Below, piece by piece: positions 3,064 to 53,633 of a stretch of DNA of 64,000 nucleotides. A model generated the notes under the pieces. It did not search any database and was not told the DNA's origin. It saw only the letters and a program-made list of their open reading frames with translations. Each line of letters begins with the position of its first letter. The first letter of the stretch is position 1. Origin of the DNA: an uncultured Candidatus Saccharibacteria bacterium (GTDB taxonomy: Bacteria; Patescibacteriota; Dojkabacteria; CAZCSM01); the NCBI GenBank assembly GCA_964501355.1, contig CAZCSM010000006.1, forward strand, positions 2,347 to 66,346, read 5' to 3'. Position numbers and translations under genes: made by a program.

Positions 3064-3230
3064 TTTGAAGAATAAAAGTTATGTTCCTTTTGACACCAAA
3101 AGGAACCAAAAGTGCTGAAACAACCCAAATCCAACAAATAGCAACCTTTTACACATAGCTACCGGAATGGGTTGTTCCAGACCTCGGCGGCTAACAACAA
3201 AAAGCAAATAACAAAGGGGATAAGAACAAT

Positions 3231-6466: not shown

Positions 6467-7249
6467 TTGCATAACAACGACACTGTTTTTAAAATGAAAG
6501 TTAATCTGCCCTTAGCTTTTCCTGTTAAAATTAGGTTTATAATATACAGAGATTCTCTCTGTATATTTTTGTTTTCCCCAAAAAGCTTTTTCAAAAGAGA
6601 ATTTAACTTTCGGCTAACTTCCGATTTCTGGTTTAACCCGGATTCTCAGATTGAATACATTCTACAATTCATCAAATTGATTGAAAAGGATCTCGACTTT
6701 CAGATTCTTCTCAACGGGAAGCTGATTCCGTCCGAGTTATCTCCTGAAATCGATTCTTACAAACTGATTGTTAGAAAAGATAAACTTCTTGTGCAGGATA
6801 TTCTTCCATTTTTTGATTCTGTGGTTGAGCGAAACTTCCAAGGGTTTTCTCCGTATCTTGAAAACTTCGACGATGATAACTATTTGTATATAGATTACGA
6901 TGTGGATTTTTTTGGTGTTTTTGCAAGCAACGATTCAAGAAAGATCGGGGGGTATTGGAATCTGGGATACTTGTTTTACGAAAAGCTCGGGCTTGGATCT
7001 TTTTTAGAGCAGAGCGTCTTTGATCTAGATGTTCGTTCCTCGAAAAAAGTCTTCTCGGCTATCACCAATCAAATTAACGATATTCTCGGAAAGCAAAATC
7101 TGAACTTTTCTGATTTCTCAAGATTGTATCTGGGGGGTATTACTTCTGAGTATTTAGATGTTAAGAATAGTGATCTGCGGGTGGAGAATGACTTAGTGAT
7201 AATAGAAGATCAACATTTCGAATTACTGTTAAATCCTGAAAAGAAATGA
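6467..7249 (+). CDS. Hypothetical protein. The real start is probably an internal Met.
   Basis: 260-aa ORF with no recognisable motif. Translationally coupled to the next ORF. Confidence 0.3.
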   Translation: MHNNDTVFKMKVNLPLAFPVKIRFIIYRDSLCIFLFSPKSFFKREFNFRLTSDFWFNPDSQIEYILQFIKLIEKDLDFQILLNGKLIPSELSPEIDSYKLIVRKDKLLVQDILPFFDSVVERNFQGFSPYLENFDDDNYLYIDYDVDFFGVFASNDSRKIGGYWNLGYLFYEKLGLGSFLEQSVFDLDVRSSKKVFSAITNQINDILGKQNLNFSDFSRLYLGGITSEYLDVKNSDLRVENDLVIIEDQHFELLLNPEKK

Positions 7250-8196
7250 TAGAAAGTCTTGTCCCATACAATTCAAATTTAATTCCGATAATAGATAAAT
7301 TGTTTTCTATTCAACTTCCTGTTAAATCAGATATTTTAGTTACTCCTGGAGATAAACTGACACTCAAAGATCCATTGGCAAGCCACGAATACTCACCGAT
7401 TCTAGCATCATTCGATCTGGAAGATGAGTTGTGGAATCTCAAAGTTCTACATGGTGAGCTTGTTGAAAACGGCGCTGTCTTGGCAAAGAAACGTGGTATT
7501 TTTAAATATGATAACGAAGTTATAAAAAGTAATTCGAGCGGAGTTATTGATTTATCAGTTAAAGGAAAATTGTTGATTCGTGAGGATTACAAAGATGAAT
7601 TTATCCCCGCAGGATTTGCGGCTGTGGTTTCAAGCGTTGATAGGCTGAATTTTCGTGTTGAAGTGAATTTATCCGGTGCAGGAATTTCTCCATTATTCGT
7701 TCACAATTTACCAATATCCTTATCTTGTTTGGTCGGAAAAATGGATTCCGAAGTAAAGATCTTATTTCATAAAGAAGATTCATTATTTGATATAAAACTT
7801 GAGACATCATTTGATAAATTAATTATTATTGATTATCTAAAGAAGGATGAGTTCAAATGGGTAATGGAAAATTTGAGCCGATTCACAAATGGCCTGTGTG
7901 TGATTACCAGTGCAACAAATAAACCAAGAATTGAATTAGTCCAAAGACTTTTTGAAAAAGTTGATGGAAATCGTCTATTTCTTGATAATGGAGTTCTGTT
8001 TTCAACTCTCTGGAAATCAAGATTGAAAAGCTATAAATATGCGAAAGTTAGAAAAGGAAGTCTTGTTGTTATAAATCACTTTAATAAAGCTCCGATTTCA
8101 GGTAAAATAATCTCGTTCAAGGGGCTTTATATTCTTGTTGAAACTGAAGATAAAAAGCAAAGATATGCACATTATTTGAATGTATTTAAGGAATGA
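7246..8196 (+). CDS. Hypothetical protein
   Basis: 316-aa ORF overlapping its neighbours by 4 bp on each side (operon-like). No recognisable domain. Confidence 0.3.
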   Translation: MIESLVPYNSNLIPIIDKLFSIQLPVKSDILVTPGDKLTLKDPLASHEYSPILASFDLEDELWNLKVLHGELVENGAVLAKKRGIFKYDNEVIKSNSSGVIDLSVKGKLLIREDYKDEFIPAGFAAVVSSVDRLNFRVEVNLSGAGISPLFVHNLPISLSCLVGKMDSEVKILFHKEDSLFDIKLETSFDKLIIIDYLKKDEFKWVMENLSRFTNGLCVITSATNKPRIELVQRLFEKVDGNRLFLDNGVLFSTLWKSRLKSYKYAKVRKGSLVVINHFNKAPISGKIISFKGLYILVETEDKKQRYAHYLNVFKE

Positions 8197-9431
8197 GAAA
8201 AGAAGATTCAAAGACGCTATATTCGGTTGCAGGTGTTGTAATTGTTTCCCTGGCTACATTTATTTTCGGCTTGTCGCTGGGATTAAAACAAAGTAACGGT
8301 GCAGATACGATAACAAATTACAGGTTAACGGGGCTTCTTCAACCGGAAGAAAAAACGGAAGATTTGGATTTTACACTATTCTGGAACGTTTGGGATATTC
8401 TTGAAAATCATTATGTAGATAGTAATGTCGATGAGAAGCAGATGTTCGAGGGTGCAATAAAGGGTATGGTGTCTTCTCTTGAAGATCCTGCAACCTTATT
8501 TTACTCTTCTGAAGAAACTTCCGAATATGACAGAATAACTGCCGGTAATTTCGAAGGAATCGGTGCAGAACTAGGATATAGAAACAATCAGGTAATAATA
8601 AATTCTCCAATAAAAGGTTTTCCTGCCTTTGATGCTGGTGTAAGAGCAGGGGATTTAATAGTTGAGATTGATGGCGTAAGTACCGAGGGAATGGATATTT
8701 TGGAGGCAGTTATGAAAATTCGTGGAGAGAAAGGCACTGATGTCGTTCTTAAACTTTTGTCGTTAGGAGAAAGTGAACCACACTATACAACAATTACTCG
8801 AGGAACTATTCATGTTGACAGTGTTGCATGGTCGATGAAAGAAAACAACGTTGCTGTAATTGAACTTAGTCGTTTTACTGAAGATACATTGGCAAACTGG
8901 ATGTCACTTTGGGATAAAACTGTGGATGAAGTTGTTGCTCAAAATCCTGATAAATTAATTCTTGATTTAAGAGGGAATACCGGTGGCTACTTTGATGCAG
9001 CAATCTGGGCAGCAAGCGACTTCCTACCAAAGGGATCTGTCGTTTCCTATCAAAAGGATCGGGATGGAAATAATGAGGTTTTCTCTGTGAAGCGAGATGG
9101 AAAATTGTTAGATATCCCAATGATAATTTTAATTGATCAAGGAAGCGCTTCGGCATCGGAGATATTAGCAGGTGCATTGAAACATTATTCAAGAGGAACC
9201 ATTATTGGTGAGGAGTCATATGGAAAAGGTACGGCTCAGCAAATCTTAAACTTAGAGGATGGTTCTACTTTACACATCACAACTCAAAAGTGGTTGCTTC
9301 CAGATCAATCCTGGATTAATCATGAAAATAAGATAACACCTGACATCAAAGTCGAATTCCCACGAGAAGACTTTGAGAAGGGTCTAGATCCTCAAATGGA
9401 TAAAGCACTTGAGGAGATAAAGTCAAAATAA
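8193..9431 (+). CDS. ctpA: Carboxyl-terminal processing (S41) peptidase with PDZ domain
   Basis: N-terminal TM segment, PDZ segment GDLIVEIDGVSTEGM, and the S41 core LILDLRGNTGGY plus ASASEI. Confidence 0.8.
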   Translation: MRKEDSKTLYSVAGVVIVSLATFIFGLSLGLKQSNGADTITNYRLTGLLQPEEKTEDLDFTLFWNVWDILENHYVDSNVDEKQMFEGAIKGMVSSLEDPATLFYSSEETSEYDRITAGNFEGIGAELGYRNNQVIINSPIKGFPAFDAGVRAGDLIVEIDGVSTEGMDILEAVMKIRGEKGTDVVLKLLSLGESEPHYTTITRGTIHVDSVAWSMKENNVAVIELSRFTEDTLANWMSLWDKTVDEVVAQNPDKLILDLRGNTGGYFDAAIWAASDFLPKGSVVSYQKDRDGNNEVFSVKRDGKLLDIPMIILIDQGSASASEILAGALKHYSRGTIIGEESYGKGTAQQILNLEDGSTLHITTQKWLLPDQSWINHENKITPDIKVEFPREDFEKGLDPQMDKALEEIKSK

Positions 9432-9470
9432 GATATATCTTTTGTTGCAATTAATTTAGTTTCTTTCAAC

Positions 9471-10634
9471 ATGAAGATTAAAAAAATATCGCCTACATTT
9501 TTAACTTTTCTTGCGGGTTCTGCGACAACGTTTCTCTTAATTATTTCAATCTTCGGATCAAGTGTCTTTATCTTATCTCGAGGAGATAATTGGAATAAGT
9601 TTCTAGAACTGTTAAATTTACATGATAGTGTTACTGGTTCATTATCACAAACTCAAACTATATTAAATGAGGAATCCTCTATAATAGATGTCGTTTCAAA
9701 CGCAAGTTCAGCCGTCGTTAGCATTGCGGTTGAGCAGGTTGAATTCAGTCCTGTTTTGGGGCCACAGAATTCAGAGGATAATATTGGAACAGGATTTATA
9801 GTTACAGCTGAGGGTTTGATTGTAACCAATCAACATGTTGTTTCAGATCAAAAAGCTACTTACTCTGTAACGACTCAAGACAAAAAGACCTATGATGTTA
9901 CGAACATTTATCGTGATGAGGTCAATGATATTGCTTTAGTTAAGATTGATACTGCAGGAGATGAACTTCCATTTGTTGAGCTTGGAGATTCTGATGCGTT
10001 GAAAGTTGGTCAAATGGTTGTTGCAATCGGAACCCCTCTTGGAGATTATCCGGGTTCTGTAACAACAGGAATTGTAAGCGGTCTTGAAAGAACTGTTGAA
10101 ATCGGGTCCGGCTTCTGGTCGTCGTCAAAGGAATATGAAGGAGTAATTCAGACTGATGCTGCAATCAATCCTGGGAATTCCGGCGGTCCATTACTGAACT
10201 CAGCTGGTCAAGCAGTCGGAATCAATTTCGCAACGACATCCGGCGCAGATAATATTTCTTTTGCGATTCCAATTAACATTCTGAAGCAGAGGCTGGATGA
10301 CTTTGAAGCTCGTGGTGGTAAATTTGTCAAACCTTATTTAGGTGTTTCATATCAGCTTGTTGACGAATATGATGCTCTTCGTTTTCGTGTTCCGACGGGG
10401 GCTTTCATCGAAGATCTTGAAGAAGATGGTCCTGCTGAAAAGGGTGGAATTAGAGCTGGTGATATTGTTGTCGAGATGAATGGGAAAGATGTTTCAGGTG
10501 GATTACAAAATGTGATAATGACTTTTAATCCAGGAGAATCTGTTGAAATAAAGGTTTGGAGAAAAACAGGTGAAGACTACAGCGAAGGTGAATATATCGA
10601 TTTGAATGTCGAACTGGGTGAGGTAGAAGGCTAG
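9471..10634 (+). CDS. htrA: HtrA/DegP-family trypsin-like serine protease with C-terminal PDZ
   Basis: TM anchor, catalytic motifs TNQHVV, DIALVKI and GNSGGPLLN, and a C-terminal PDZ (GDIVVEMNG). Confidence 0.8.
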   Translation: MKIKKISPTFLTFLAGSATTFLLIISIFGSSVFILSRGDNWNKFLELLNLHDSVTGSLSQTQTILNEESSIIDVVSNASSAVVSIAVEQVEFSPVLGPQNSEDNIGTGFIVTAEGLIVTNQHVVSDQKATYSVTTQDKKTYDVTNIYRDEVNDIALVKIDTAGDELPFVELGDSDALKVGQMVVAIGTPLGDYPGSVTTGIVSGLERTVEIGSGFWSSSKEYEGVIQTDAAINPGNSGGPLLNSAGQAVGINFATTSGADNISFAIPINILKQRLDDFEARGGKFVKPYLGVSYQLVDEYDALRFRVPTGAFIEDLEEDGPAEKGGIRAGDIVVEMNGKDVSGGLQNVIMTFNPGESVEIKVWRKTGEDYSEGEYIDLNVELGEVEG

Positions 10635-32201: not shown

Positions 32202-32987
32202 ATGTCAGGACATTCCAAATGGTCAACTATTAAAAGGAAAAAGGGTGCTCTAGATGCTAAGCGAGGTCAAGTCTTCACGAAGATCTCAAAGATGATAACT
32301 ATCGCTGCACAAGAAGGCGGTGGTGATCCAGATATGAACTTCTCTTTGCGTATTGCTATAGAGAAGGCAAAAGAGGCAAACATGCCAAAAGACAACATCG
32401 ACAGAGCTGTTAAAAAAGGATTGGGAGAGGGTGGTGGTGAAGCGTTAGTTGAAATGTCATATGAGGGCTATGGTCCTGAGGGAGTTGCTGTTATTGTTGA
32501 TGCAATGACAGATAATAGAAATCGTACTGCAGCCGAGGTTCGCCATATTTTTGAGGGTTGCGGCGGATCATTGGGATCGGATGGCGCCGTTTCTTGGCAG
32601 TTTGAAACAAAAGGTTTGATTACGATTAAATGTAAAAAGATTCAAAAATCAGAGAAATTTGGTAAAGAGGACGAAGAGGTTTCTATCGATAAGGACGAAT
32701 GCATGTTAGAGATTATGGAGGTTGAGGGTGTAGAAGACGTTCGGGAAATAGATCTGGAAGAAGAAGGCTTGGGTCTAGAAATTTATTCTGATAAAAAGGA
32801 CTTTGCTCCAGTACGGGGACAGGTTGAGCAGTTAGGTTATGTAATTGTTTCCTCTGAAATCATCAAGGTTCCGACCAATCCTACGAAAGTCAGTGCTGAA
32901 GTAGTTGAGAAAGTCCATCACTTTATAGAGTCTATGGAGGAAAATGAGGATGTCCAAAATGTTTGGGTTAATATAGACTTAGAATAA
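32202..32987 (+). CDS. yebC: YebC/PmpR-family transcriptional regulator
   Basis: MSGHSKWSTIKRKKGALDAKRG is the canonical N-terminus. Carries an acidic insert. Confidence 0.85.
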   Translation: MSGHSKWSTIKRKKGALDAKRGQVFTKISKMITIAAQEGGGDPDMNFSLRIAIEKAKEANMPKDNIDRAVKKGLGEGGGEALVEMSYEGYGPEGVAVIVDAMTDNRNRTAAEVRHIFEGCGGSLGSDGAVSWQFETKGLITIKCKKIQKSEKFGKEDEEVSIDKDECMLEIMEVEGVEDVREIDLEEEGLGLEIYSDKKDFAPVRGQVEQLGYVIVSSEIIKVPTNPTKVSAEVVEKVHHFIESMEENEDVQNVWVNIDLE

Positions 32988-33497
32988 TTGATGTCAAAGA
33001 AATCATCTATTCGTATATTGGGGATTGATCCCGGGATTGCAATAACAGGGTGGGGGATTGTAGATTTTGACGGAAACCAGTGTAAAGTAATTTCATATGG
33101 TGCAATTATTACTAACTCTGACCAACTGATTGAAGATCGTTTGAATATTCTTTTTGATGATTTGGATGAAGTCGTAGCAGAATTCTCTCCTTCCGTTATG
33201 GCAATAGAGCAATTGTTTTTTTTCAAAAATGCAAAAACGATAATTACCGTTGGGGAGGCGAGGGGGGTTACACTGCTTGCCGCGAAGAGATGCAATCTTG
33301 GAATATTTGAGTATACGCCCTTGCAAATAAAGCAGGCTGTGACAGGCTATGGGCGTGCTGCCAAAGCTCAGATGCAGCAGATGATAACGGAATTGCTAAA
33401 ACTTGAGGAAACGCCAAAGCCTGATGATGTTGCTGATGCATTGGCAGTAGCCTATACTCACAGTGTATATAATAATCACTTTAAATTCGAAAAATGA
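32988..33497 (+). CDS. ruvC: Holliday junction resolvase RuvC
   Basis: ILGIDPGIAITGWGIV and an acidic catalytic tetrad region. Confidence 0.85.
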   Translation: MMSKKSSIRILGIDPGIAITGWGIVDFDGNQCKVISYGAIITNSDQLIEDRLNILFDDLDEVVAEFSPSVMAIEQLFFFKNAKTIITVGEARGVTLLAAKRCNLGIFEYTPLQIKQAVTGYGRAAKAQMQQMITELLKLEETPKPDDVADALAVAYTHSVYNNHFKFEK

Positions 33498-34081
33498 TAG
33501 GATATCTAAAAGGTACTGTAATTGAAACCGATGCAGAGACTCTAATTTTAAATGTTAGTGGAGTAGGGTACCTAGTTCATGCTAATACCTCTGTCATACG
33601 CAAGGATGAAGATAAGGAGTTTTATATCTATACACATGTTCGCGAAGATCAGCTAAATTTGTATGGATTTCCCACTCAAGAAGAACTGACCCTATTTAAA
33701 ATTTTGATTTCCGTTAAAGGAGTTGGACCAAAAGTGGCGATGAGTATTCTTTCCAATCTCAGTGTGGAAGAGCTTGCTCAGGCTGTTCTACTTGATGACG
33801 CGAAAACAATTCAGTCTGTTCCAGGAATTGGGAAAAAAGGTGCTGAGCGGATTGTTCTTGAAATAAGAGGACAGATTGAGAACTTAGGATATTCTGCAAA
33901 GGGTGGAGTAGAAAGAAACACAACGAAGATAGCGAGTAACTTGAAAAAGGAAGTTCTTGGTGCCCTGCAAAACCTCGGTTATAATAAAGGGGAAGCAGAA
34001 GATAGACTGGATGCTGTGATGCAGGACTATTCTGGCGAAATGAAGGTCGAAACTCTGATTAAACTATGTTTGAGCACATAA
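33494..34081 (+). CDS. ruvA: Holliday junction DNA helicase RuvA
   Basis: MIGYLKG start, OB-fold, and a paired helix-hairpin-helix ([17 protein letters not shown]). Confidence 0.85.
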
Positions 34082-34085
34082 AATT

Positions 34086-35087
34086 GTGATAGAAAAGAGA
34101 ATTGTTTCTCCCACTGCGGATAAACAGGATGTTAAAATAGAAAAAACATTAAGACCTCGAACTTTAAAGGAATTAATCGGGAGGGAGCAGGAAAAGGAAA
34201 GCTTCAACATATTAATTGATGCCGCGAAGAAACGTGGTGCTTCTATCGACCATGTCTTATTATATGGTCCGCCGGGGCTTGGCAAAACTACTCTTGCTCA
34301 TATTTTGGCAAATGAGATGAACGTTGGAATCAAGGTCACATCGGGGCCGGCCATTGAGCGCGCTGGTGATTTGGCTGCAATTCTAACGAACCTTCAAAAA
34401 CACGACATCTTGTTTATTGATGAGATACATAGATTGAACAAGGTTGTCGAGGAAATCTTATACCCTGCTATGGAAGATTCTTCCTTAGATATAATTATTG
34501 GGAAGGGACCTTCTGCAAGAACTGTCAAATTAGACTTGCCGCCATTCACCTTGATCGGTGCTACGACTAAGATTGGTATGCTCAGTTCTCCGTTGCGTGA
34601 TCGTTTCGGAGTCATTCACAGACTTAATTATTATAGTGAGGAGGAGCTTGCGCAGATAATTATTCGGTCTGCAGATGTGCTCGGTGTATCCATATCACAA
34701 GAGTATGCAAAGGAAATTGCGGAAAGATCTCGCGGGACAGCCAGAATTGCAAATAGACTGCTGAAACGTGTTCGAGACTATGCGGAAGTAAAAAATGATA
34801 GTGTTATCGATAGTAATGTCGTTGCAGAATCACTGAATATAATAGGCGTTGATAAAAATGGTTTGGATAACTTGGATAGAATGGTTCTCTCGGTAATATT
34901 AGAAAATTATAGTGGCGGGCCTGTCGGTCTTAAGGCTATTGCTGCCGTAATATCTGAGGATGTGGATACCCTTGCTGATGTTTGCGAGCCATACCTCCTG
35001 CAAAACGGTTATATCCTGAGAACGCCACGAGGAAGGGTTGCAACTAAAAAAGCCTATGATTTACTTGGTTTAGAATATAAATTTTAA
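34086..35087 (+). CDS. ruvB: Holliday junction DNA helicase RuvB
   Basis: AAA+ Walker [12 protein letters not shown], Walker [11 protein letters not shown], and a winged-helix C-terminus. Confidence 0.9.
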
Positions 35088-35089
35088 AG

Positions 35090-35854
35090 ATGCAAAAACG
35101 AACAAGAATTGGTGTGCTAAGTGTTCTTATGGGAGTACTCTTGTTACTCAGTCCTTCGTTTCACATCGGCAACCCGGCACTGTTTGCTGTTCTGGTGGCT
35201 TCTGTAATGTATTTTGGTCTTTATTGGGTTTTGGAATTTAACGTCATTGGGCTGCGCTTGATTTTTGTTTTTCTTCTACCAATAATTTTTACATTCTTAT
35301 TCGTTCAAAGATTACTAAGTGCATGGGGTAGTGGCGCAATCAGCTTCCCGATCGCTGTGTTTTTTGCCATCCTTACTTACGTTCTAATACTAACTGCAAA
35401 TATCTTGAATGTTGCATCGGTTAAGAAAATCCCGCTGCTTCAGGTCGCTCAGACGTCATTGTATTTCTTCTCTACAGTTACCGTTTTCTTTGCTTTCGAC
35501 GCCATTCAGGGCCTGGAAATGGGTACTATACTTGATGTTTTAATTATTGCTTTAGTGGGATTTATAATCACATACCAGCTGATGTGGTTTATTTTGGAGT
35601 CAAGAGCAGACCTCTTTAATGCCGCCTTGATGATCGATCTGGCTTTGGTGATGATTTACTTTGCTTTGTCCTTCTTTCCAATACCATATATGCTCTATAA
35701 CCTAGTTCTCGCGACTGTCTTCTACATCCTTTCTGGGTTATTCATGCATTCAGCAAAGAAGAGTCTTACCGTCGGTATTATTATCGAGTATGTTGTTGTT
35801 ATTGCTGTAATATCTACAATATCAATCCTATCACTTAATTGGGGAAGCTTCTAA
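35090..35854 (+). CDS. Polytopic membrane protein of unknown function
   Basis: 254 aa with about 7 predicted TM helices. No motif recognised. Confidence 0.35.
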   Translation: MQKRTRIGVLSVLMGVLLLLSPSFHIGNPALFAVLVASVMYFGLYWVLEFNVIGLRLIFVFLLPIIFTFLFVQRLLSAWGSGAISFPIAVFFAILTYVLILTANILNVASVKKIPLLQVAQTSLYFFSTVTVFFAFDAIQGLEMGTILDVLIIALVGFIITYQLMWFILESRADLFNAALMIDLALVMIYFALSFFPIPYMLYNLVLATVFYILSGLFMHSAKKSLTVGIIIEYVVVIAVISTISILSLNWGSF

Positions 35855-36570
35855 GAAGCTTTGGGTATATCAATCCAAGAACGAGAATCTATTCAGCCTG
35901 TTTTCCCGTCTTTATAATAAGAATCCTCTATGAGGATTCTCTCACTTTTGTTTATTAATACGGCGGATTGTAATCATGCAAAACTTTAAGAGGCATTAGT
36001 AAAGAGTGGGGGAGTAGGGGCCTCAAGATTAGAGATTGATAATTATTATCCCATAATTATAAAACTATAGGACCTGGAGTTAATAAAGTTTTAATAATTC
36101 AAAATAGGGTGAAACGGACAGTGAAACAGGAATACGCGTAACATTCATAGCTTACTGTGGATAAGTACCCCTGTGACCATATCCTCGGGGGAGACCCGGT
36201 TTAACACAAATAATGTATAAATAATAATTGTATTTATCTTATAAACGTTGATGGTGGAGGATTAAATAGATGAATATTATTCTAATTATTCCCCATTAGG
36301 GCGCGTTGATCTAAAATGTTTGCAAATCGACAATCTGAGTGCTAATATAAGAGCATAAACTATTTCGTATAATCACCCTTATGCGAAGTACTGTGTCGAC
36401 AGGGAGCGACGGGGCAGTCCCCTGTTCTATTTTCAATATTTGCTGATTTATCTCTTTGCTTCTATAATTAATTTGAATTATTAATCATTTATTTTTATAA
36501 ACAATTCTTTTATTTACCTTTCGGTCTTGTATTCGTTCTATTACTATTAACTTTCATTGAAAATACGCTT

Positions 36571-37686
36571 ATGGTTGCTTTAGATCCCCTATCGATTGAA
36601 ATTCCTTATAAAGAGGACTTTTTGATTGATTTGACAAACAATAATTACTCTATTGAAACTGTTTATAACTACGGTAGGGATCTTACGGTCTTTGAAAGGT
36701 TTCTACAATCACGTAAAGTTCCATTTGAGAAGTTGGATAAAAGGACGATTAGTTTGTACAAAGGATTTTTACGCTCAGGGAAACATTTGGAAATAATAAA
36801 TGAGCTTCGAGATAGAGAAGAATTTTTGAAAATTACGGGACATGCTTCAATTAACATTGGTGATACGGCAGAATCTCGTGTGACGAATTCTAAGGGGGTT
36901 CTAAGCGACGATAAGGTTGCAGGTGCTACACGAGGTGCTTTGCAAAATACAAGTTTGAATAAACTCTCGGCTCGATCTGTGAATCGGATGCTTTCTGCTC
37001 TCAGATCTTACCTCGGATATTTGCTCGACTATGATTATGTATGTCCGATTGCTCCCGAAGTTATTAAACTTATAAAAACGGAACGTAAAGAATCTCAAGT
37101 TGCTGATCTTGATGAATTAATTCAAATTATCGAAGCTTCAGAATTATATGAGGAAGATGACTTTGTTAAACTTCGAAATCGTGCAATGCTTGAAGTTCTT
37201 TTTTCAACTGGGATGAGAATCTCTGAACTTGTTAGTTTAGGAACTGCGGATATTAATGCGGAAGGTAAGATCTATATTATGGGTAAAGGAAAGAAGCAGC
37301 GTATGGTTTATTTGACCGAAAGGGCTAGGGGGCATTTGAATGAGTATATGAAGAGAAGAGGGACTTCTGAATTTTCTACCTCCCCTGCTCTATTTTTATC
37401 TTCTCGCGGTCAGGGGAAAAATACGAGAAAAAGTCGAATAACTCCACGTTATGTTCAGATGAAAATTCAACAATATCGCAAACTTTTGGGGATTGTGGTT
37501 CCGGTGACGCCACATGGTTTGAGGCACGGTTTCGCAACTTATTTGGCTGAAGAAGGCGCAAATCCGGCGGCGATCCAGAGGCTTCTCGGTCATGAATCTC
37601 TTCAAACTACGACAAGATATGTGCATGCGTCGGATAAATTTGCAGAGGAAACACATAAGAAATATCATCCGCTGGCGGTGGGATAA
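36571..37686 (+). CDS. Tyrosine site-specific recombinase/integrase (XerC/D-phage integrase family) with an enlarged N-terminal SAM-like domain
   Basis: C-terminal catalytic motifs HGLRH and LLGHESLQTTTRYVH, with R...K...H.R..Y placement. It follows a 716-bp non-coding region. Confidence 0.8.
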   Translation: MVALDPLSIEIPYKEDFLIDLTNNNYSIETVYNYGRDLTVFERFLQSRKVPFEKLDKRTISLYKGFLRSGKHLEIINELRDREEFLKITGHASINIGDTAESRVTNSKGVLSDDKVAGATRGALQNTSLNKLSARSVNRMLSALRSYLGYLLDYDYVCPIAPEVIKLIKTERKESQVADLDELIQIIEASELYEEDDFVKLRNRAMLEVLFSTGMRISELVSLGTADINAEGKIYIMGKGKKQRMVYLTERARGHLNEYMKRRGTSEFSTSPALFLSSRGQGKNTRKSRITPRYVQMKIQQYRKLLGIVVPVTPHGLRHGFATYLAEEGANPAAIQRLLGHESLQTTTRYVHASDKFAEETHKKYHPLAVG

Positions 37687-37890
37687 GAAAATTAAAAATT
37701 AAAAATTAAAAAGTAAAAAAGAAATTTTACGGTTTCAGTGGCAGGGACAGGATGAGGGTTTTTGTAGTCTGGAAAGTGCAATGCACTGTTACTCGTCACT
37801 GAATTTGTGTAAAAAATCTCTTGCAATCAGGCGGATTTTTGATAATATATGTCATATACTTATAAATATTTATAGTTTTGTGTCACAAAC

Positions 37891-38514
37891 ATGCGTTTTT
37901 TAGATTTTAAACAAAAGCTTGAAGGTTTTGTAGTATTTTCTTTGGATGATATTGGGGCTTTTGATCCGAATTTTAATATGGTTCAATTGTCGCAGTGGCA
38001 AAAGAAAAATTACATTAGGAAAATTATAAAGGGAAAGTATATTTTCTCTGATTCAGATTTAAATGAAAAACATCTTTTCTTAATCAGTAATGAGCTTTTG
38101 TCGCCGTCATATATTTCATTAGAAACGGCACTTTCGTGGTATGGAATAATACCCGAAGGTGTTTATACGATAACGGCGGTTTCACCTATTCGAACTATGG
38201 ATTATCAAGTTTCAATTGGTAATTTTTCTTACAATAAGATAAAGAAGTCGGCTTTCTTCGGAGATGTTGTGAATGAGATTCCCGGAACTAAGAGAAAATA
38301 TAGGATTGCTTCAATAGAAAAAGCCATTATTGATTATTTGTATTACCACAAAGAAATAGTATCTTCTGATGATATCGATGCTTTGCGATTTAATAGTACT
38401 GTCATAAAAAACGGTTTAGACTTTAATCTCTTCATTTCATATGCGAAGGTTATTGAAAACGCAGAGTTATTGAAAAGAGCCAATATTTTTGTAAAGTATT
38501 TTGAGAATGCTTAA
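37891..38514 (+). CDS. AbiEi-family type IV toxin-antitoxin antitoxin/transcriptional regulator
   Basis: N-terminal winged-helix segment FSLDDIGAFDPNFNMVQLSQWQKKNYIRKIIKGKY is typical of the AbiEi_4 domain. It overlaps the downstream toxin by 14 bp. Confidence 0.65.
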   Translation: MRFLDFKQKLEGFVVFSLDDIGAFDPNFNMVQLSQWQKKNYIRKIIKGKYIFSDSDLNEKHLFLISNELLSPSYISLETALSWYGIIPEGVYTITAVSPIRTMDYQVSIGNFSYNKIKKSAFFGDVVNEIPGTKRKYRIASIEKAIIDYLYYHKEIVSSDDIDALRFNSTVIKNGLDFNLFISYAKVIENAELLKRANIFVKYFENA

Positions 38515-39280
38515 ATTAAGTGAAATTAAAGAGAATTATTCTCCTAAATTACAGGTTTTCTCAAGAGGAATTCTGAGAGAATATATTCAATACAAGATTC
38601 TTGAGGTTATTTATAGTTCCAAATTTGCTTCGAAGTTGGTTTTCATGGGCGGAACAGCTCTTCGAATTGTTTATGATAATCAGAGGTTTTCTGAAGATTT
38701 AGACTTTGATAATTTTTCTTTAACAGTTGATGATTTTGAGAATCTTACCAATTTAATAGAGAATTCTTTGGAGAATGAGGGTTATGAAATAGAGATTAGG
38801 AATGTCTACAAAGGTGCTTTTCATTGTTATATCAAAATTCCGAAAGTATTGCAGCTTGAGGGTTTATCTGATATTTCGAACGAAAAGATTACGATTCGAA
38901 TTGATACAACTCCTCAAAATTATGATTATAAGAAGGGTTTATTTTTGATTGATAAATTTGGTGTGTATCAGAATATTTCTGTTGTCCCAATAGAGCTTTT
39001 GATGGCACAGAAGTTTGCTGCGATTTTAGGCAGGAAACGTGCAAAGGGTCGAGATTATTTTGATTTGTCGTATTTGTTTGGTTTGGGTGTTGAACCTGAT
39101 ATGTTATATATTGAAAAGAAATTAGGGTTTTCAAATTTGTCTGAACTTCGGATTGCTGTTCTCGATCATCTTAAGAATGTAAATTTGGAGGATATGGTTA
39201 AAGATGTGGAAAAGTTCTTGTTTAATCCTAGTCACACTGACAGAATAAGAAATTTTCCGCAAATGATAGAAAAGCTTTGA
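38501..39280 (+). CDS. AbiEii/AbiGii-family nucleotidyltransferase toxin (DUF1814)
   Basis: Motifs FMGGTALRIVY and RFSEDLDFD match the nucleotidyltransferase-fold abortive-infection toxin. Confidence 0.75.
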   Translation: MRMLKLSEIKENYSPKLQVFSRGILREYIQYKILEVIYSSKFASKLVFMGGTALRIVYDNQRFSEDLDFDNFSLTVDDFENLTNLIENSLENEGYEIEIRNVYKGAFHCYIKIPKVLQLEGLSDISNEKITIRIDTTPQNYDYKKGLFLIDKFGVYQNISVVPIELLMAQKFAAILGRKRAKGRDYFDLSYLFGLGVEPDMLYIEKKLGFSNLSELRIAVLDHLKNVNLEDMVKDVEKFLFNPSHTDRIRNFPQMIEKL

Positions 39281-39303
39281 AAGAAGCTTCCCCTACTTTC
39301 TTT

Positions 39304-39372
39304 GTGTACATGCTTCGGATAAATTCGCAGAGGAAACGCATAAGAAATATCATCCGCTGGCGGTGGGATAAG
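39304..39372 (+). pseudogene. Orphan duplicate of the integrase 3-prime terminus (last 22 codons plus stop)
   Basis: The 69-bp copy of 37618-37686 has 5 mismatches that are all synonymous, so it still encodes VHASDKFAEETHKKYHPLAVG followed by a stop. The last 33 bp are identical. Confidence 0.6.
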
Positions 39373-39605
39373 ATAAGGAAAAAGTAAAAAGGAAAAATAT
39401 GTGGTGAGCTTGTCCCTCCTTAGCGGGACGAAGTAAAACTAGGGGAAAAAAGATGCTTTTTCCTCAAATTTTTGGTAAAATGTTATCTTATATCTATATA
39501 TTATATCATTTTTATTTATTTATTTTATTTGTAGAATAAAATGCTGACACTAACAGGAGACCAACAATAGAATCTATTCTTGGAGATGAAGTTTTAGATC
39601 GTGCT

Positions 39606-40697
39606 TTGAAGATAGTAACAATGGAAGATTTTGATGCCACAGCACCTAATTATGCTGCTGCTGCATTGGGAACTACTGTTTCTGAAGCTCAGGCAGATCC
39701 GGATCAAGCTGTACAAAAACTTATCGAACTTCAAGCTAGATTAATGTCAACAAGTGCTTTGGCACCTGATTTTGCTAATAAAGTTCTTTTAGGTTTGAGT
39801 GATCTTCATACTGGCTTAGCTTTGATATTACCGCCAGACTTTAATGAAAAGGTTACTGCAAGAGCTGTAGAATTAGGATATGTTCCTAATAAACAGGAAG
39901 ATACTGAAGGAGCGCGAGAAGATAATGATGATTTTGATCCTTCCCAAGTAATTGTTAATTTAGCAGATACAGATGGTCTTGGTGATGTTGGAGATGATTT
40001 TTCACCAGAGCAAGCCGAGCAAGCTATGAGAGCTTTCGGATTGGTAAAGGAAGATGGGGTATCTTGGGCAGATCTTTATAAGCAATGGAAAGAAGAAAGG
40101 CATCCTGCAGTTCGTAATTTTCTAAACGGTGCACGGGGTTCTTTCAACGAAGCAGATTATAATGCATTGAGCACTAGGCTTCAGAGGGCTTGGGGAATTC
40201 TCGGTGAAACTTTAAGTTCTGGTTCAGAAAATGGAAATCTTTTGAGGGTGGCTTTAAATACAAGATTTGCTAGAAATGATTCAAAACAATCTTCTGCACA
40301 AGGTCAACAAAGACCTGTTGTAGAAGAAGTTGTCCGATCTCATGTAGCAACTCCTGTTGCTGTTAAAGCAAAGGCAGAGGTTGCTCCTACTGCCCTTTCT
40401 GAAGAAGAGAGATTGGTTATGGAGAAAATGGGATCAAGTATTGATAATCTTAGAAATATGGGAGCTGAAGCAGCATACAAGCTTGCTTGGAGTAAGTTTA
40501 ATAGAGAATGGCAAGATGCTGGTCGTGAAGCTATCGATAGAGACCTTAGCACAGGAAATGCCGGTCTGCAATTTAGACAGGAACAAACAACTGAAATTCG
40601 TACTGCAATTCGATATTTGAGAGATAAAGTCTTTGGAGAGGCTGAATGGCAGAAATTAGATGATAAATACACATTGACACAAAGACAGAGATGGTAA
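39606..40697 (+). CDS. Acidic soluble protein of unknown function, with a probable TTG or internal ATG start
   Basis: 363 aa, Ala/Asp/Glu-rich, no TM segment. Visibly higher GC and different codon usage from the flanking genes. Confidence 0.35.
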   Translation: MKIVTMEDFDATAPNYAAAALGTTVSEAQADPDQAVQKLIELQARLMSTSALAPDFANKVLLGLSDLHTGLALILPPDFNEKVTARAVELGYVPNKQEDTEGAREDNDDFDPSQVIVNLADTDGLGDVGDDFSPEQAEQAMRAFGLVKEDGVSWADLYKQWKEERHPAVRNFLNGARGSFNEADYNALSTRLQRAWGILGETLSSGSENGNLLRVALNTRFARNDSKQSSAQGQQRPVVEEVVRSHVATPVAVKAKAEVAPTALSEEERLVMEKMGSSIDNLRNMGAEAAYKLAWSKFNREWQDAGREAIDRDLSTGNAGLQFRQEQTTEIRTAIRYLRDKVFGEAEWQKLDDKYTLTQRQRW

Positions 40698-40715
40698 ATT
40701 TTTATTAGATTTTTT

Positions 40716-40748
40716 AAAAAGAGGTCTTAAAGGCGACCTCTTTTTTTA
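40716..40748. terminator. Bidirectional rho-independent terminator
   Basis: AAAAAGAGGTC-ttaaaggc-GACCTCTTTTTTT, lying between convergent genes. Confidence 0.6.
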
Positions 40749-42707
40749 CTCCCCCACTCCAACTAAATATGTTGCTGGGACTGCCACATAACTTGAATGT
40801 AGCGTATATTTATCTTCTCGTCCGTCTGTGAATGTCACCGTTCTGAAGTAATCGGTTTGAAATCCTGCGATTGCAGATTTTGTTAACTTCCGTTCTCCTG
40901 GTGCTAAATCTGCAGATGGAATTTCATAAGAAGTTGATGCCCAGTATTTCCCATATATTTCAGGACCTGAGACTTCAACTTTTCTTCCATCGTCCGTTCC
41001 ATAAATCCAAACTCTTGCTCGTTTAGTTTCGGTATTAACATCTTGCTGAATAAGAATGTGTCCGGGGGAATCATTTCTAAACTGCATACTTGCAGATGGA
41101 ATGTAAACTGAAGCATCAAGCCCGGGTTGTGGCCATCTATAATATTCCACATCATAACTGTGCGGATGTCGTTCAACAATCGGAAACCCTCCATAAAATG
41201 CTGCCCGAAAAAGTGTTGTGGATGTTTGACAAATTCCTCCACCATATTCTAATGCAGTTTGTGTTCTGTTTTTTATCACCCAACCAGGCATGAAACCATG
41301 TGCGGCATCAATTGGTCCAATGTATTGAGCATAATTGAAAATTTCTCCCGGACCAATTATTACATTTTGAAACCTTGATAAGCCGACCTTTATGTTGGTT
41401 TCCCGACTGTCTGTAGAATGACCGAAATCTGATTCCCCGTAAGCTATTAACTCTTTAATTCCTAGATTAAGCTCCGTTTCATCGTATATTTGCCCCTCCT
41501 GTACAGATATAGGAAGTTCGGTTTCATAGATACTATTTTTGAAGTTTTCTACAATTAATTCAACAGCCTGTTCTTTTTCAAGAGCATATCCATCTTTTAG
41601 CGTTCCTTCAACAATAACTGTTTCATTAGCATCAAGACTTAATTTGATGTGTTCAGCGTGATTATCAAGTTGACTTACAATATTAGTATTTACATATTTA
41701 TCAATTTCCTCCGGATTTAAAAGAATGCTAAAGTTCACAGGTACTGTATCTTCACCTGCAACAATTCCTGTTCCAAACTTGTAATAAATTGGTTTTGAGA
41801 ACAGTGCATTTGCAAAGGTCTTTGAGGAAATGTCGAAAAGCAACCACTCTGGGTGATCAGCAAGTTTTTCAGTGACATTAACATTGCCGGCTTTAAATTT
41901 AAGCTCTTGTTCAATAATCTCATTTGCAGCATCTGCGATAACAGCAACTTCTCCATATGAAAGTGTCGGAGTACTTTGTGTCGTTTGGAGACTGTATGAT
42001 TCTCTATACAAATATTCAAATGCAGTCTTAACATTATTAACACTTTCTGGGGTTAGTGATGTTCCCGATTTCCCCTCAACGACAACAAATCTTCCCTCCT
42101 GATGAATCACCTCCGGTTCCTTGAACGGACTAATGTTTTCGAAATTCGCATAAATTGTGTTAAGAATATTTGCCTCTTTTACATTTACACTAAGCGCTCT
42201 GTCGTATTTCTTAAAATTATTTCCAATTGAATAAACATATTCAGAAAACGTATCAGGATATGCAGGATGTTGAGCTGTGTAAATGTTTTGGAGAACCTCA
42301 TTTGCGTTAATTTCTGCATTAAAGTCTGTAATATCGATTGTTTCTTTTTCACCGTTAATTTCAACTTCTACTGTATTTACTTGAAAATCTTCAATTGCTC
42401 CAGCAAGTATTTCTCTTGCTTCTGCAAGAGTCATTCCTCCAACATAGTAATCCCCTACTCTCGTTTGAATGTAAAATCTGTTATGGAAATAAATGTAATT
42501 TGCCAACAAAATTAATGAAATTAATAGTGTTGAAAATATGAATGCATACGAAGTTGCCGTCAAAACTTGTCGACGTTTTGATGGTGCATTATAGCTAACT
42601 AGCTTCTCTTTTTGATTCGTTGGTTTCGTTCCCATAGCAGTTTTTTGCGTTTTGGCAATATTATCAAATTTATAATAACGTTTTTTCCGGTTCTTAACAA
42701 TATTCAA
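40746..42707 (-). CDS. VanW-like domain membrane-anchored protein
   Basis: N-terminal TM. The C-terminal YGGGICQTSTTLFRAAFYGG matches the VanW-domain signature GGGVCQ.STTL. 653 aa. Confidence 0.5.
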   Translation of the reverse strand: MNIVKNRKKRYYKFDNIAKTQKTAMGTKPTNQKEKLVSYNAPSKRRQVLTATSYAFIFSTLLISLILLANYIYFHNRFYIQTRVGDYYVGGMTLAEAREILAGAIEDFQVNTVEVEINGEKETIDITDFNAEINANEVLQNIYTAQHPAYPDTFSEYVYSIGNNFKKYDRALSVNVKEANILNTIYANFENISPFKEPEVIHQEGRFVVVEGKSGTSLTPESVNNVKTAFEYLYRESYSLQTTQSTPTLSYGEVAVIADAANEIIEQELKFKAGNVNVTEKLADHPEWLLFDISSKTFANALFSKPIYYKFGTGIVAGEDTVPVNFSILLNPEEIDKYVNTNIVSQLDNHAEHIKLSLDANETVIVEGTLKDGYALEKEQAVELIVENFKNSIYETELPISVQEGQIYDETELNLGIKELIAYGESDFGHSTDSRETNIKVGLSRFQNVIIGPGEIFNYAQYIGPIDAAHGFMPGWVIKNRTQTALEYGGGICQTSTTLFRAAFYGGFPIVERHPHSYDVEYYRWPQPGLDASVYIPSASMQFRNDSPGHILIQQDVNTETKRARVWIYGTDDGRKVEVSGPEIYGKYWASTSYEIPSADLAPGERKLTKSAIAGFQTDYFRTVTFTDGREDKYTLHSSYVAVPATYLVGVGE

Positions 42708-53264: not shown

Positions 53265-53633
53265 ATGAAAAATTTTAAAAAAGAGGAGAAAATTCAGTAT
53301 AGGGCTTATGCTTTTTCTCTTAATGTTATAAATCTTTTAAAGAGAAGTAAGAAACATGATTATATAAACGAGGTTCTTTTCAAGCAAATACTTCGTTCTG
53401 TAACTTCGATTGGAGCAAACATTATTGAGGGTCAAGCGGGAATTAGTCGTAAGGAGTTTCGAAATTATATGAGTATTGCACTCAAAAGTGCAAATGAAAC
53501 AAAATATTGGTTAGCACTAATACGAGATTTAAGGATATTTGTGAAAGATGATGTTGACTCGTTAATAGAAGAGTCAATAGAGATTGCAAATATATTAGGA
53601 GCGATTGTCTTCAAGTTAAGGAAAAATGACTAA
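53265..53633 (+). CDS. Four-helix-bundle protein (23S rRNA intervening-sequence protein family)
   Basis: 122 aa. SIGANIIEGQ...SANETKYWL matches the TIGR02436-type four-helix bundle. It is flanked by inverted A/T-rich repeats. Confidence 0.7.
   Translation: MKNFKKEEKIQYRAYAFSLNVINLLKRSKKHDYINEVLFKQILRSVTSIGANIIEGQAGISRKEFRNYMSIALKSANETKYWLALIRDLRIFVKDDVDSLIEESIEIANILGAIVFKLRKND

Follow-up and report, generated by a model that had tools for sequence, protein, structure and literature searches.

The described systems closest to the locus reported here are Xer recombinases and their dif target sites. In Escherichia coli and the Thermococcales dif does not lie beside xer. For archaeal dif, agreement with the bacterial consensus is reported at 14-18 of 28 positions (PMC2958812). 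In the single-recombinase systems XerS/difSL of streptococci and lactococci and XerH/difH of Helicobacter and Campylobacter, a single xer gene adjoins an inverted-repeat target, and a review regards such adjacency of dif and recombinase gene as a probable hallmark of these systems (PMC5357621). In addition, Smyshlyaev et al. (2021, PMC8138268) described a subgroup, "Cand", of tyrosine recombinases that are related to Xer and come from unclassified candidate phyla, and the portions of that source drawn on here mention no target site for it. We analysed a 64,000-nucleotide (64-kb) stretch of contig CAZCSM010000006.1 (assembly GCA_964501355.1) from an uncultured Candidatus Saccharibacteria bacterium placed among the Dojkabacteria, referred to below as the window and numbered from its first nucleotide. 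Its region 35855-40750 carries a Xer-type tyrosine recombinase gene (hereafter xer) with a predicted dif site upstream and a pair of AbiE toxin-antitoxin (TA) genes downstream. A first-pass annotation had taken this region for a compact integrative island between ruvB and the gyrase block. Our analysis indicates that it is probably a module for chromosome maintenance that belongs to the resident genome and is followed by a small accessory spot, rather than an integrative island that brought its own integrase.

The recombinase gene (36571-37686, plus strand) encodes 371 amino acids and matches the Pfam family Phage_integrase (1e-38). The tyrosine integrase gene of the first-pass annotation is therefore present, and it is its role as an island integrase that does not stand. 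We compared homologous loci, designated by L numbers, with 45-61% identity to the window recombinase: 7 from genomes and 80 kept out of at least 452 from metagenomes. The 7 genome homologues (one genome per species, 46-61% identity) were found in Ca. Dojkabacteria, Woesebacteria, Amesbacteria and metagenome-assembled genomes (MAGs) labelled Dehalococcoidia. Wherever the contigs are long enough, the gene order yebC-ruvC-ruvA-ruvB-(membrane gene)-gap-xer, followed by gyrA on the opposite strand, recurs. Because homologues keep the same synteny across distant candidate-phyla lineages, the comparison argues that the window recombinase is a resident Xer, conserved vertically across deep lineages. 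Its composition does not deviate from that of the other window genes (z-score of GC content +0.5).

Among the NCBIfam models the protein scores best with XerC (204 bits), followed by XerD (190 bits) and, as a full-length match, archaeal XerA (178 bits). Its nearest relatives of solved structure are E. coli XerD (5dcf, 1a0p) and Pyrococcus XerA (4a8e); the XerC/XerD-dif and archaeal XerA-dif systems thus provide its best matches in both sequence and structure. The residues read as the catalytic set (R216, K239, H315, R318, H341 and Y350) are intact and invariant in the alignment of the family. Furthermore, the highly conserved C-terminal tail of the family, HASDK[FY]AEETHKKYHPL, aligns to the XerD C-terminus (...LHQQHHPRA), with which it shares the ending H-x-x-(Y/H)-H-P. 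In contrast to the XerC/XerD pair, most loci here carry one gene. The protein nevertheless does not fall within the described single-recombinase families, as the NCBIfam XerS model scores 105 bits against a cutoff of 267 and the XerH chain 5jjv is matched at 1.5e-11, more weakly than XerD or XerA. The occurrence of the family in Dojkabacteria, Woesebacteria and Amesbacteria MAGs resembles that given for the "Cand" subgroup, a comparison made at the level of description. Two further features of the proteins were observed. Compared with most orthologues, the window Xer has ~45 additional residues inserted in its N-terminal DNA-binding domain (residues ~75-130), and a shorter insertion is found in the same place in L006. 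A second, more distant xer-like gene lies directly beside the first in L007 (10989-11870), L009 (7-924) and L022 (~8950-9958), and lineages of this type may use two recombinases.

The predicted dif site, TATTTCGTATAA-TCACCC-TTATGCGAAGTA (36361-36390, plus strand), consists of 12-bp inverted arms around a 6-bp spacer, 30 bp in all, and lies 181 bp before the start of xer. It scores 23 bits with the position weight matrix (PWM) of the family, the runner-up in the window reaching 3.3 bits. The family consensus is AACTGAGTATAA-TATCTC-TTACACTCAGTT, with 1.3-2.0 bits per position in the arms and ~1 bit in the spacer. Counted over 90 sequences, such a site is the top PWM match in 76, one per locus, and several of the misses are contigs truncated on the upstream side of xer. 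Strong sites likewise number one in the window, the scan having covered the window and the related loci. The distance from site to xer is -5 to 433 bp in 73 of the 76 loci, in most of them at most 130 bp, and overall reaches 3,231 bp; relative to xer, 66 of the sites point the same way and 10 the opposite way. The site is kept in genomes spanning 24-57% GC. We found no published description of a target site for these candidate-phyla Xer recombinases in the literature searched.

The window site matches the classical dif sites of E. coli and Bacillus subtilis at 16-18 of 28 positions, and the consensus matches each of them at 16 of 28. Only 0.07% of the 28-mers of the window reach 16 or more matches to E. 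coli dif, and the 16/28 found here falls within the range of 14-18/28 reported for archaeal dif (PMC2958812). The 12-6-12 geometry, comparable to the 11-6-11 type of classical dif, and the inner motif ATAA...TTA[CT]A (ATAA/TTAT in the classical site) agree as well. By contrast, the spacer of difSL measures 11 bp, where that of the sites studied here has the classical 6 bp, and its arm sequences also differ. At outer arm positions we observed covariation that keeps the palindrome (43, 36 and 52 observed against 28, 26 and 42 expected cases), and such covarying arms fit a single protein reading both of them. The near-symmetry of the arms in turn resembles the known single-recombinase modules, in which one protein binds both arms. 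A systematic asymmetry at one inner position gives the site a polarity. From these features we infer that the conserved 30-bp palindrome is a predicted dif site used by the adjoining Xer. The whole has the appearance of an Xer/dif module of the known single-recombinase arrangement, in a lineage for whose site we found no description.

The resident module (35855-37686) would thus comprise a regulatory gap, a dif-type site and a recombinase that acts on this site. Two Xer protomers would bind the near-identical arms of each dif copy, and the two dif copies on a chromosome dimer would synapse. Tyr350 would then cleave where the spacer meets the arms, and strand exchange, taking place in two rounds, would yield monomers.

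Extra sequence separates the site from xer in L003, L006 and L007 and contains genes in the first two, namely a 512-amino-acid minus-strand gene in L006 (within 6741-10000) and open reading frames (ORFs) of 87 and 223 amino acids in L003 (within 8575-10000). Because genes are found there, the dif-xer junction is itself a putative insertion spot. In L013 an exact copy of the left arm of the locus's own dif (TACTGAGTATAAT, 3165-3177) lies ~20 nt past the xer stop codon, so that xer has a full dif on one side and a half site on the other. The other loci do not share this arrangement and show no enrichment of dif arms downstream of xer, and we rejected a general bracketing of xer by dif half-sites.

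An unlikely alternative is that the palindrome serves as a promoter or operator, for Xer autoregulation or for another repressor, with the true dif located elsewhere. Such a role would suit the perfect -10 hexamer TATAAT in the left arm, the commonest distance of ~28 bp to the xer start and the TTGACA-like boxes upstream in several loci, and a degenerate form of the pattern also matches hairpins of single-stranded RNA phages and a phage tail gene, so that palindromes of this kind do arise otherwise. It does not suit the dif geometry with its inner motif and its 16-18 matches to classical dif, nor the lower conservation of the spacer relative to the arms. Moreover, the asymmetric site is inverted in 10 loci and its distance to xer ranges from -5 to 3,231 bp with genes between the two in L003 and L006, which is no fixed promoter geometry.

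The remainder of the ORF-free stretch (35855-36570, 716 bp), in which, as the first-pass annotation had stated, no ORF exceeds 41 amino acids, also holds conserved motifs. The perfect DnaA-box 9-mer TGTGGATAA (reverse complement TTATCCACA) at 36156-36164 on the plus strand is the sole perfect copy in the window. Related loci totalling 846 kb contain 28 perfect DnaA boxes, 22 of which lie within 400 nt upstream of a dif-like site, all 22 in the same orientation to it, at distances of 30-260 nt. An extended -10-like element, TGATATAGT, precedes the DnaA box by ~25 nt in many loci, and TTGACA occurs near the dif-like site. Alignment of the gap shows conservation limited to short motifs resembling protein sites, and the gap reads as regulatory DNA plus a recombination site. 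The conserved DnaA box and the promoter-like elements probably regulate the Xer/dif module.

Several other readings of the gap were tried and rejected. A replication origin was discarded since the perfect DnaA box stands alone and not in a cluster, and dnaA is absent from the vicinity. A structured RNA, for which motifs had suggested RNase P RNA, found no support: Rfam returned no RNA family for the window gap, even at E<=10 on a 561-nt stretch, and none for the gaps of 18 related loci, and the fold is no better than that of shuffled sequences (z -0.9). A hairpin with compensatory changes proved to be the dif-like DNA palindrome, conserved in sequence, and not an RNA feature. Terminator-like hairpins on the plus strand lie after the membrane gene (35920-35940) and between the dif-like site and xer (36408-36426); the latter folds no better than shuffles (z -0.7). 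Over 36001-36205 the window is ~70% identical to L001 (342-546), with the fully conserved blocks AAAGAGTGGGGGAGTAGG, ACTATAGGACC, TAGGGTGAAACG, GCGTAACATT and CTCGGGGGAGAC alternating with variable ones. This two-sequence comparison includes a CCCC...GGGG hairpin with a variable loop and without an Rfam match.

The locus has also taken part in a recent exchange. The window segment 36209-39180 (2,972 bp), which contains the dif-like site, xer, abiEi and most of abiEii, differs at one position from the Logan contigs SRR29243437 (L001) and SRR29243436 (L002). Just outside this block both contigs are 25-35% diverged from the window, and they are unrelated to it left of ~36001 and past the stop codon of the xer relic described below (39371), a position beyond which L002 carries another gene. 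Both breakpoints are sharply defined and fall at 36206-36208 and at 39181. These observations point to a recent swap of the dif-xer-abiE block between diverged lineages by homologous recombination. As the right breakpoint falls inside abiEii, both lineages must already have had the same architecture.

The stretch after xer (from 37687) has, on gene content, the character of a small variable accessory spot. The interval between xer and gyrA is empty in L057 and L064, where xer abuts gyrA, and otherwise holds one to three small unrelated genes. The abiEi/abiEii pair occurs at this locus in the window and two near-identical contigs only, orf363 and vanW in the window only. AbiEi, the antitoxin or regulator (37891-38514, plus strand), matches the PADLOC profile at 3.7e-54 over residues 1-202 of 207 and the NCBIfam model TAA_AbiEi at 3.7e-8, below its cutoff. 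AbiEii, the nucleotidyltransferase toxin (38501-39280, plus strand), matches PADLOC at 1e-87 over residues 3-258 of 259 and Pfam PF08843 at 7e-23. The genes are adjacent, antitoxin before toxin, in one operon and overlap by 14 nt, and in gene order, overlap and full-length matches we detected no sequence-level difference from AbiE type IV TA systems. Thus the abortive-infection-type TA pair named earlier is borne out, and by family match it is classed as a type IV toxin-antitoxin/abortive-infection module. The two genes are the only low-GC genes of the stretch (total GC 0.31-0.32), with normal GC at third codon positions (GC3). The closest AbiEii relatives, some in Dojkabacteria, are 59-69% identical and stand in unrelated contexts, with neither xer nearby nor flanking repeats. 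The DNA of the cassette matched no plasmid.

The orphan gene orf363 (39606-40697, plus strand) encodes the 363-amino-acid protein already noted as acidic, with an isoelectric point of 4.8 and 58 D+E against 42 K+R residues. The higher GC and different codon usage attributed to it did not hold up: its GC of 0.400 is close to the mean of the window genes, 0.380 (z +0.7), its GC3 is low, and its synonymous codon choice fits the other window genes better than average (z +1.5). GC at the three codon positions follows the pattern 0.57/0.42/0.21, which shows the gene to be coding; it is a lineage-specific orphan. The family searches that the first-pass annotation had proposed gave no match in Pfam, NCBIfam, PADLOC or PHROGs, and no relative but itself was found among 5.8e9 clustered proteins or 1.84e9 representative proteins. 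A single-sequence AlphaFold2 model is all-helical and of low confidence (predicted local distance difference test 46). The strong bidirectional terminator reported at the end of the region is present at 40716-40745, common to orf363 and vanW, with an 11-bp stem, A and T runs on either side and folding energies of -14 and -15.5 kcal/mol on the two strands.

Around the AbiE pair lies a direct repeat, which bears out the integrase-end remnant of the first-pass annotation. Copy 1 (37620-37712, plus strand) comprises the last 67 nt of xer and 26 nt downstream, and copy 2, the relic of the xer 3' end (39305-39397, plus strand), is 93 nt long and 89% identical to it. Nucleotides 39306-39371 encode VHASDKFAEETHKKYHPLAVG and a stop codon, beginning just past the codon of the catalytic tyrosine, and all four differences from the live xer in this part are synonymous and in third position. 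In L002, seven synonymous changes and one Gly-to-Asp replacement separate the relic from the live copy, and the two end in different stop codons. Because the changes are nearly all synonymous, the relics appear to have diverged under protein-level selection, each being either the tail of the former xer allele of its lineage or the product of gene conversion with the live gene. A DNA-level constraint on the xer 3' end was rejected, as third codon positions vary freely and the conservation is at the protein level. A terminator-like hairpin follows the relic (39442-39465, plus strand), where the live xer end has none, and is probably the original xer terminator. The repeat brackets only the 1.6-kb AbiE pair and not the 4.9-kb stretch, xer lying outside except for its last 67 nt, and no repeats bracketing the whole of 35855-40750 were found.

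The event that brought AbiE would have duplicated the last 67 nt of xer and the 26 nt downstream, so that the live 3' end of xer now stands to the left of the pair, and a dead relic followed by the old terminator to its right. Such a structure would be the expected outcome of incoming DNA with a full xer 3' end joining inside the tail of the resident gene. The likeliest routes would be integration of an element that brought its own xer 3' end, giving an attL/attR-like outcome, with later decay of the element, or homology-anchored illegitimate recombination. The layout resembles that left by integrative elements targeting gene 3' ends, in which likewise the repeat is the 3' end of the target gene, the gene stays intact and a displaced relic stands at the far side. 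In contrast to these elements and to integrative mobile elements exploiting Xer (IMEX), the insert here lacks an integrase, measures only 1.6 kb, has repeats that are not dif and was seen in no empty or excised form. Among the 90 sequences the relic occurs only in the window and near-identical contigs (L002), the other 87 having none, and the 3' end of xer was accordingly rejected as a general integration hotspot.

It has to be asked whether the AbiE pair is a cassette of the IMEX or dif-module type, which the neighbouring Xer would have inserted into the 3' end of its own gene, using a secondary site there, and which could excise through the 93-bp repeats. The pair contains no recombinase gene, adjoins xer and lies between direct repeats; however, the PWM finds no dif in these repeats, the flanks being the xer 3' end, and the closest AbiE relatives have neither flanking repeats nor a nearby xer. 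By manual comparison the repeat starts beside a dif-arm-like sequence, TTCGGATAA at the relic against TTCGTATAA in the window dif (8 of 9 positions), whereas elsewhere dif arms are not enriched downstream of xer and the relic is confined to the window and near-identical contigs. The second-best PWM match of the window (37803-37832, plus strand; 3.3 bits, 20 of 30 positions against the family consensus) lies between xer and abiEi, but is at chance level: a binomial estimate expects ~1 such match, and the sequence is possibly fortuitous. Tailed-phage contigs that carry perfect dif-like palindromes and lack an xer homologue lend the idea some plausibility. On balance we consider such a cassette improbable.

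That the whole of 35855-40750 is one horizontally acquired integrative or defence island with the recombinase as its integrase is very improbable: a tyrosine recombinase beside a TA pair, a gene-end repeat and an orphan gene, the PHROGs label "integrase" for the recombinase and the movement of the dif-xer-abiE block between lineages would favour it, but xer and the gap with its site keep the same synteny in distant relatives, the direct repeat surrounds the AbiE pair only with no att repeats around integrase and cargo, neither xer nor orf363 deviates in composition or codon usage, and the identical block ends inside abiEii with homologous flanks, as homologous recombination and not an island boundary would have it. 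Of the horizontally acquired segment proposed by the first-pass annotation, the part after xer survives as accessory DNA whose content varies in relatives, and the left half (gap and xer) is resident. The checks of composition and synteny that it had suggested went against an island, since GC and codon usage mark none, the abiE genes alone being low in total GC, and relatives carry the same recombinase in the same place, which largely refutes the claim for the left half.

Some observations weigh against the reading as a resident Xer/dif module with an accessory spot. The window recombinase scores below the curated NCBIfam cutoffs of every named Xer family. The site includes a perfect TATAAT and in many loci is only a short way from the start of xer, so that it may act as a promoter or operator as well or instead. 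A single old insertion of AbiE does not explain why the relics in the window and L002 differ at synonymous sites only, unless there was gene conversion or independent events took place, and the insertion event is a reconstruction, no empty site in a closely related genome having been found. Finally, most of the long loci have positive GC skew on the left side of xer and negative skew on its right, and in the window the skew flips at ~40.7 kb and is positive again at 50 kb, as it also is in L018 and L019 past the minus-strand gyrase block. Given this return at 50 kb, the flip may merely be a gene-strand effect of the minus-strand block after the terminator (vanW, gyrA, gyrB, a PSP1-domain gene, holB and a PP2C phosphatase gene), and we claim no replication terminus at ~40.7 kb.

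Dif-like palindromes were also seen in viral contigs. One group of IMG/VR tailed-phage contigs (L098 at 1446-1475, L100, L102, L114 and L131) carries AACTGAGTATAATGACCATTATACTCAGTT upstream of a terminase gene; in L098, where the position was checked, it is intergenic. The 12-bp arms of this sequence are both identical to those of the dif-like sites of L003 and L006. In L098 terminase and portal genes were identified, and tblastn finds no xer homologue in the contigs of the group, which may represent an Xer-exploiting phage of these hosts. Most other viral matches were rejected as hairpins of single-stranded RNA levivirus-like phages or as lying in a tail-protein gene, leaving this one tailed-phage group. 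In L095, L129 and ~14 other IMG/VR contigs of ~4.4 kb, the degenerate dif pattern matches a perfect palindrome in the maturation-protein gene of levivirus-like phages; of the two named contigs, L129 was found to carry both the replicase and the maturation gene, L095 the latter, and these matches are false positives for dif.

Upstream of the gap, on the plus strand, the window carries yebC (32202-32987), ruvC (32988-33497), ruvA (33494-34081), ruvB (34086-35087) and a conserved membrane protein gene (35090-35854) with a weak match to Pfam DUF5656 (E=0.003, under cutoff). Homologues of the latter (~270 amino acids) lie 0.5-0.9 kb upstream of xer in L016, L019, L025, L027, L044, L053, L055 and L064. 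Elsewhere in the window, a gene for a "23S rRNA-intervening sequence protein" (PF05635, 1.5e-23; 53265-53633) stands amid a type IV pilus cluster, in the order T2SSE, T2SSE, PF05635 gene, T2SSF.

For annotation, the locus illustrates that an Xer recombinase beside a TA pair can mimic a defence island, and that synteny and not gene content decides. Our results furthermore provide a predicted dif site for a large uncultured bacterial radiation, and the 30-bp site offers a handle for finding termini as well as Xer-exploiting mobile elements and phages of these hosts. We put forward only tentatively, as a rather doubtful generalization, that candidate-phyla bacteria and some of the contigs labelled Dehalococcoidia use an undescribed single-recombinase Xer/dif module, with dif upstream of xer and accompanied by a DnaA box, and that phages may exploit the site. 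A conserved DnaA box beside a dif-like site is unexpected. If the proposal is true, the box would link the replication initiator with the resolution of chromosome dimers or with the expression of xer, and the module might work away from the classical terminus, free of FtsK like archaeal XerA.

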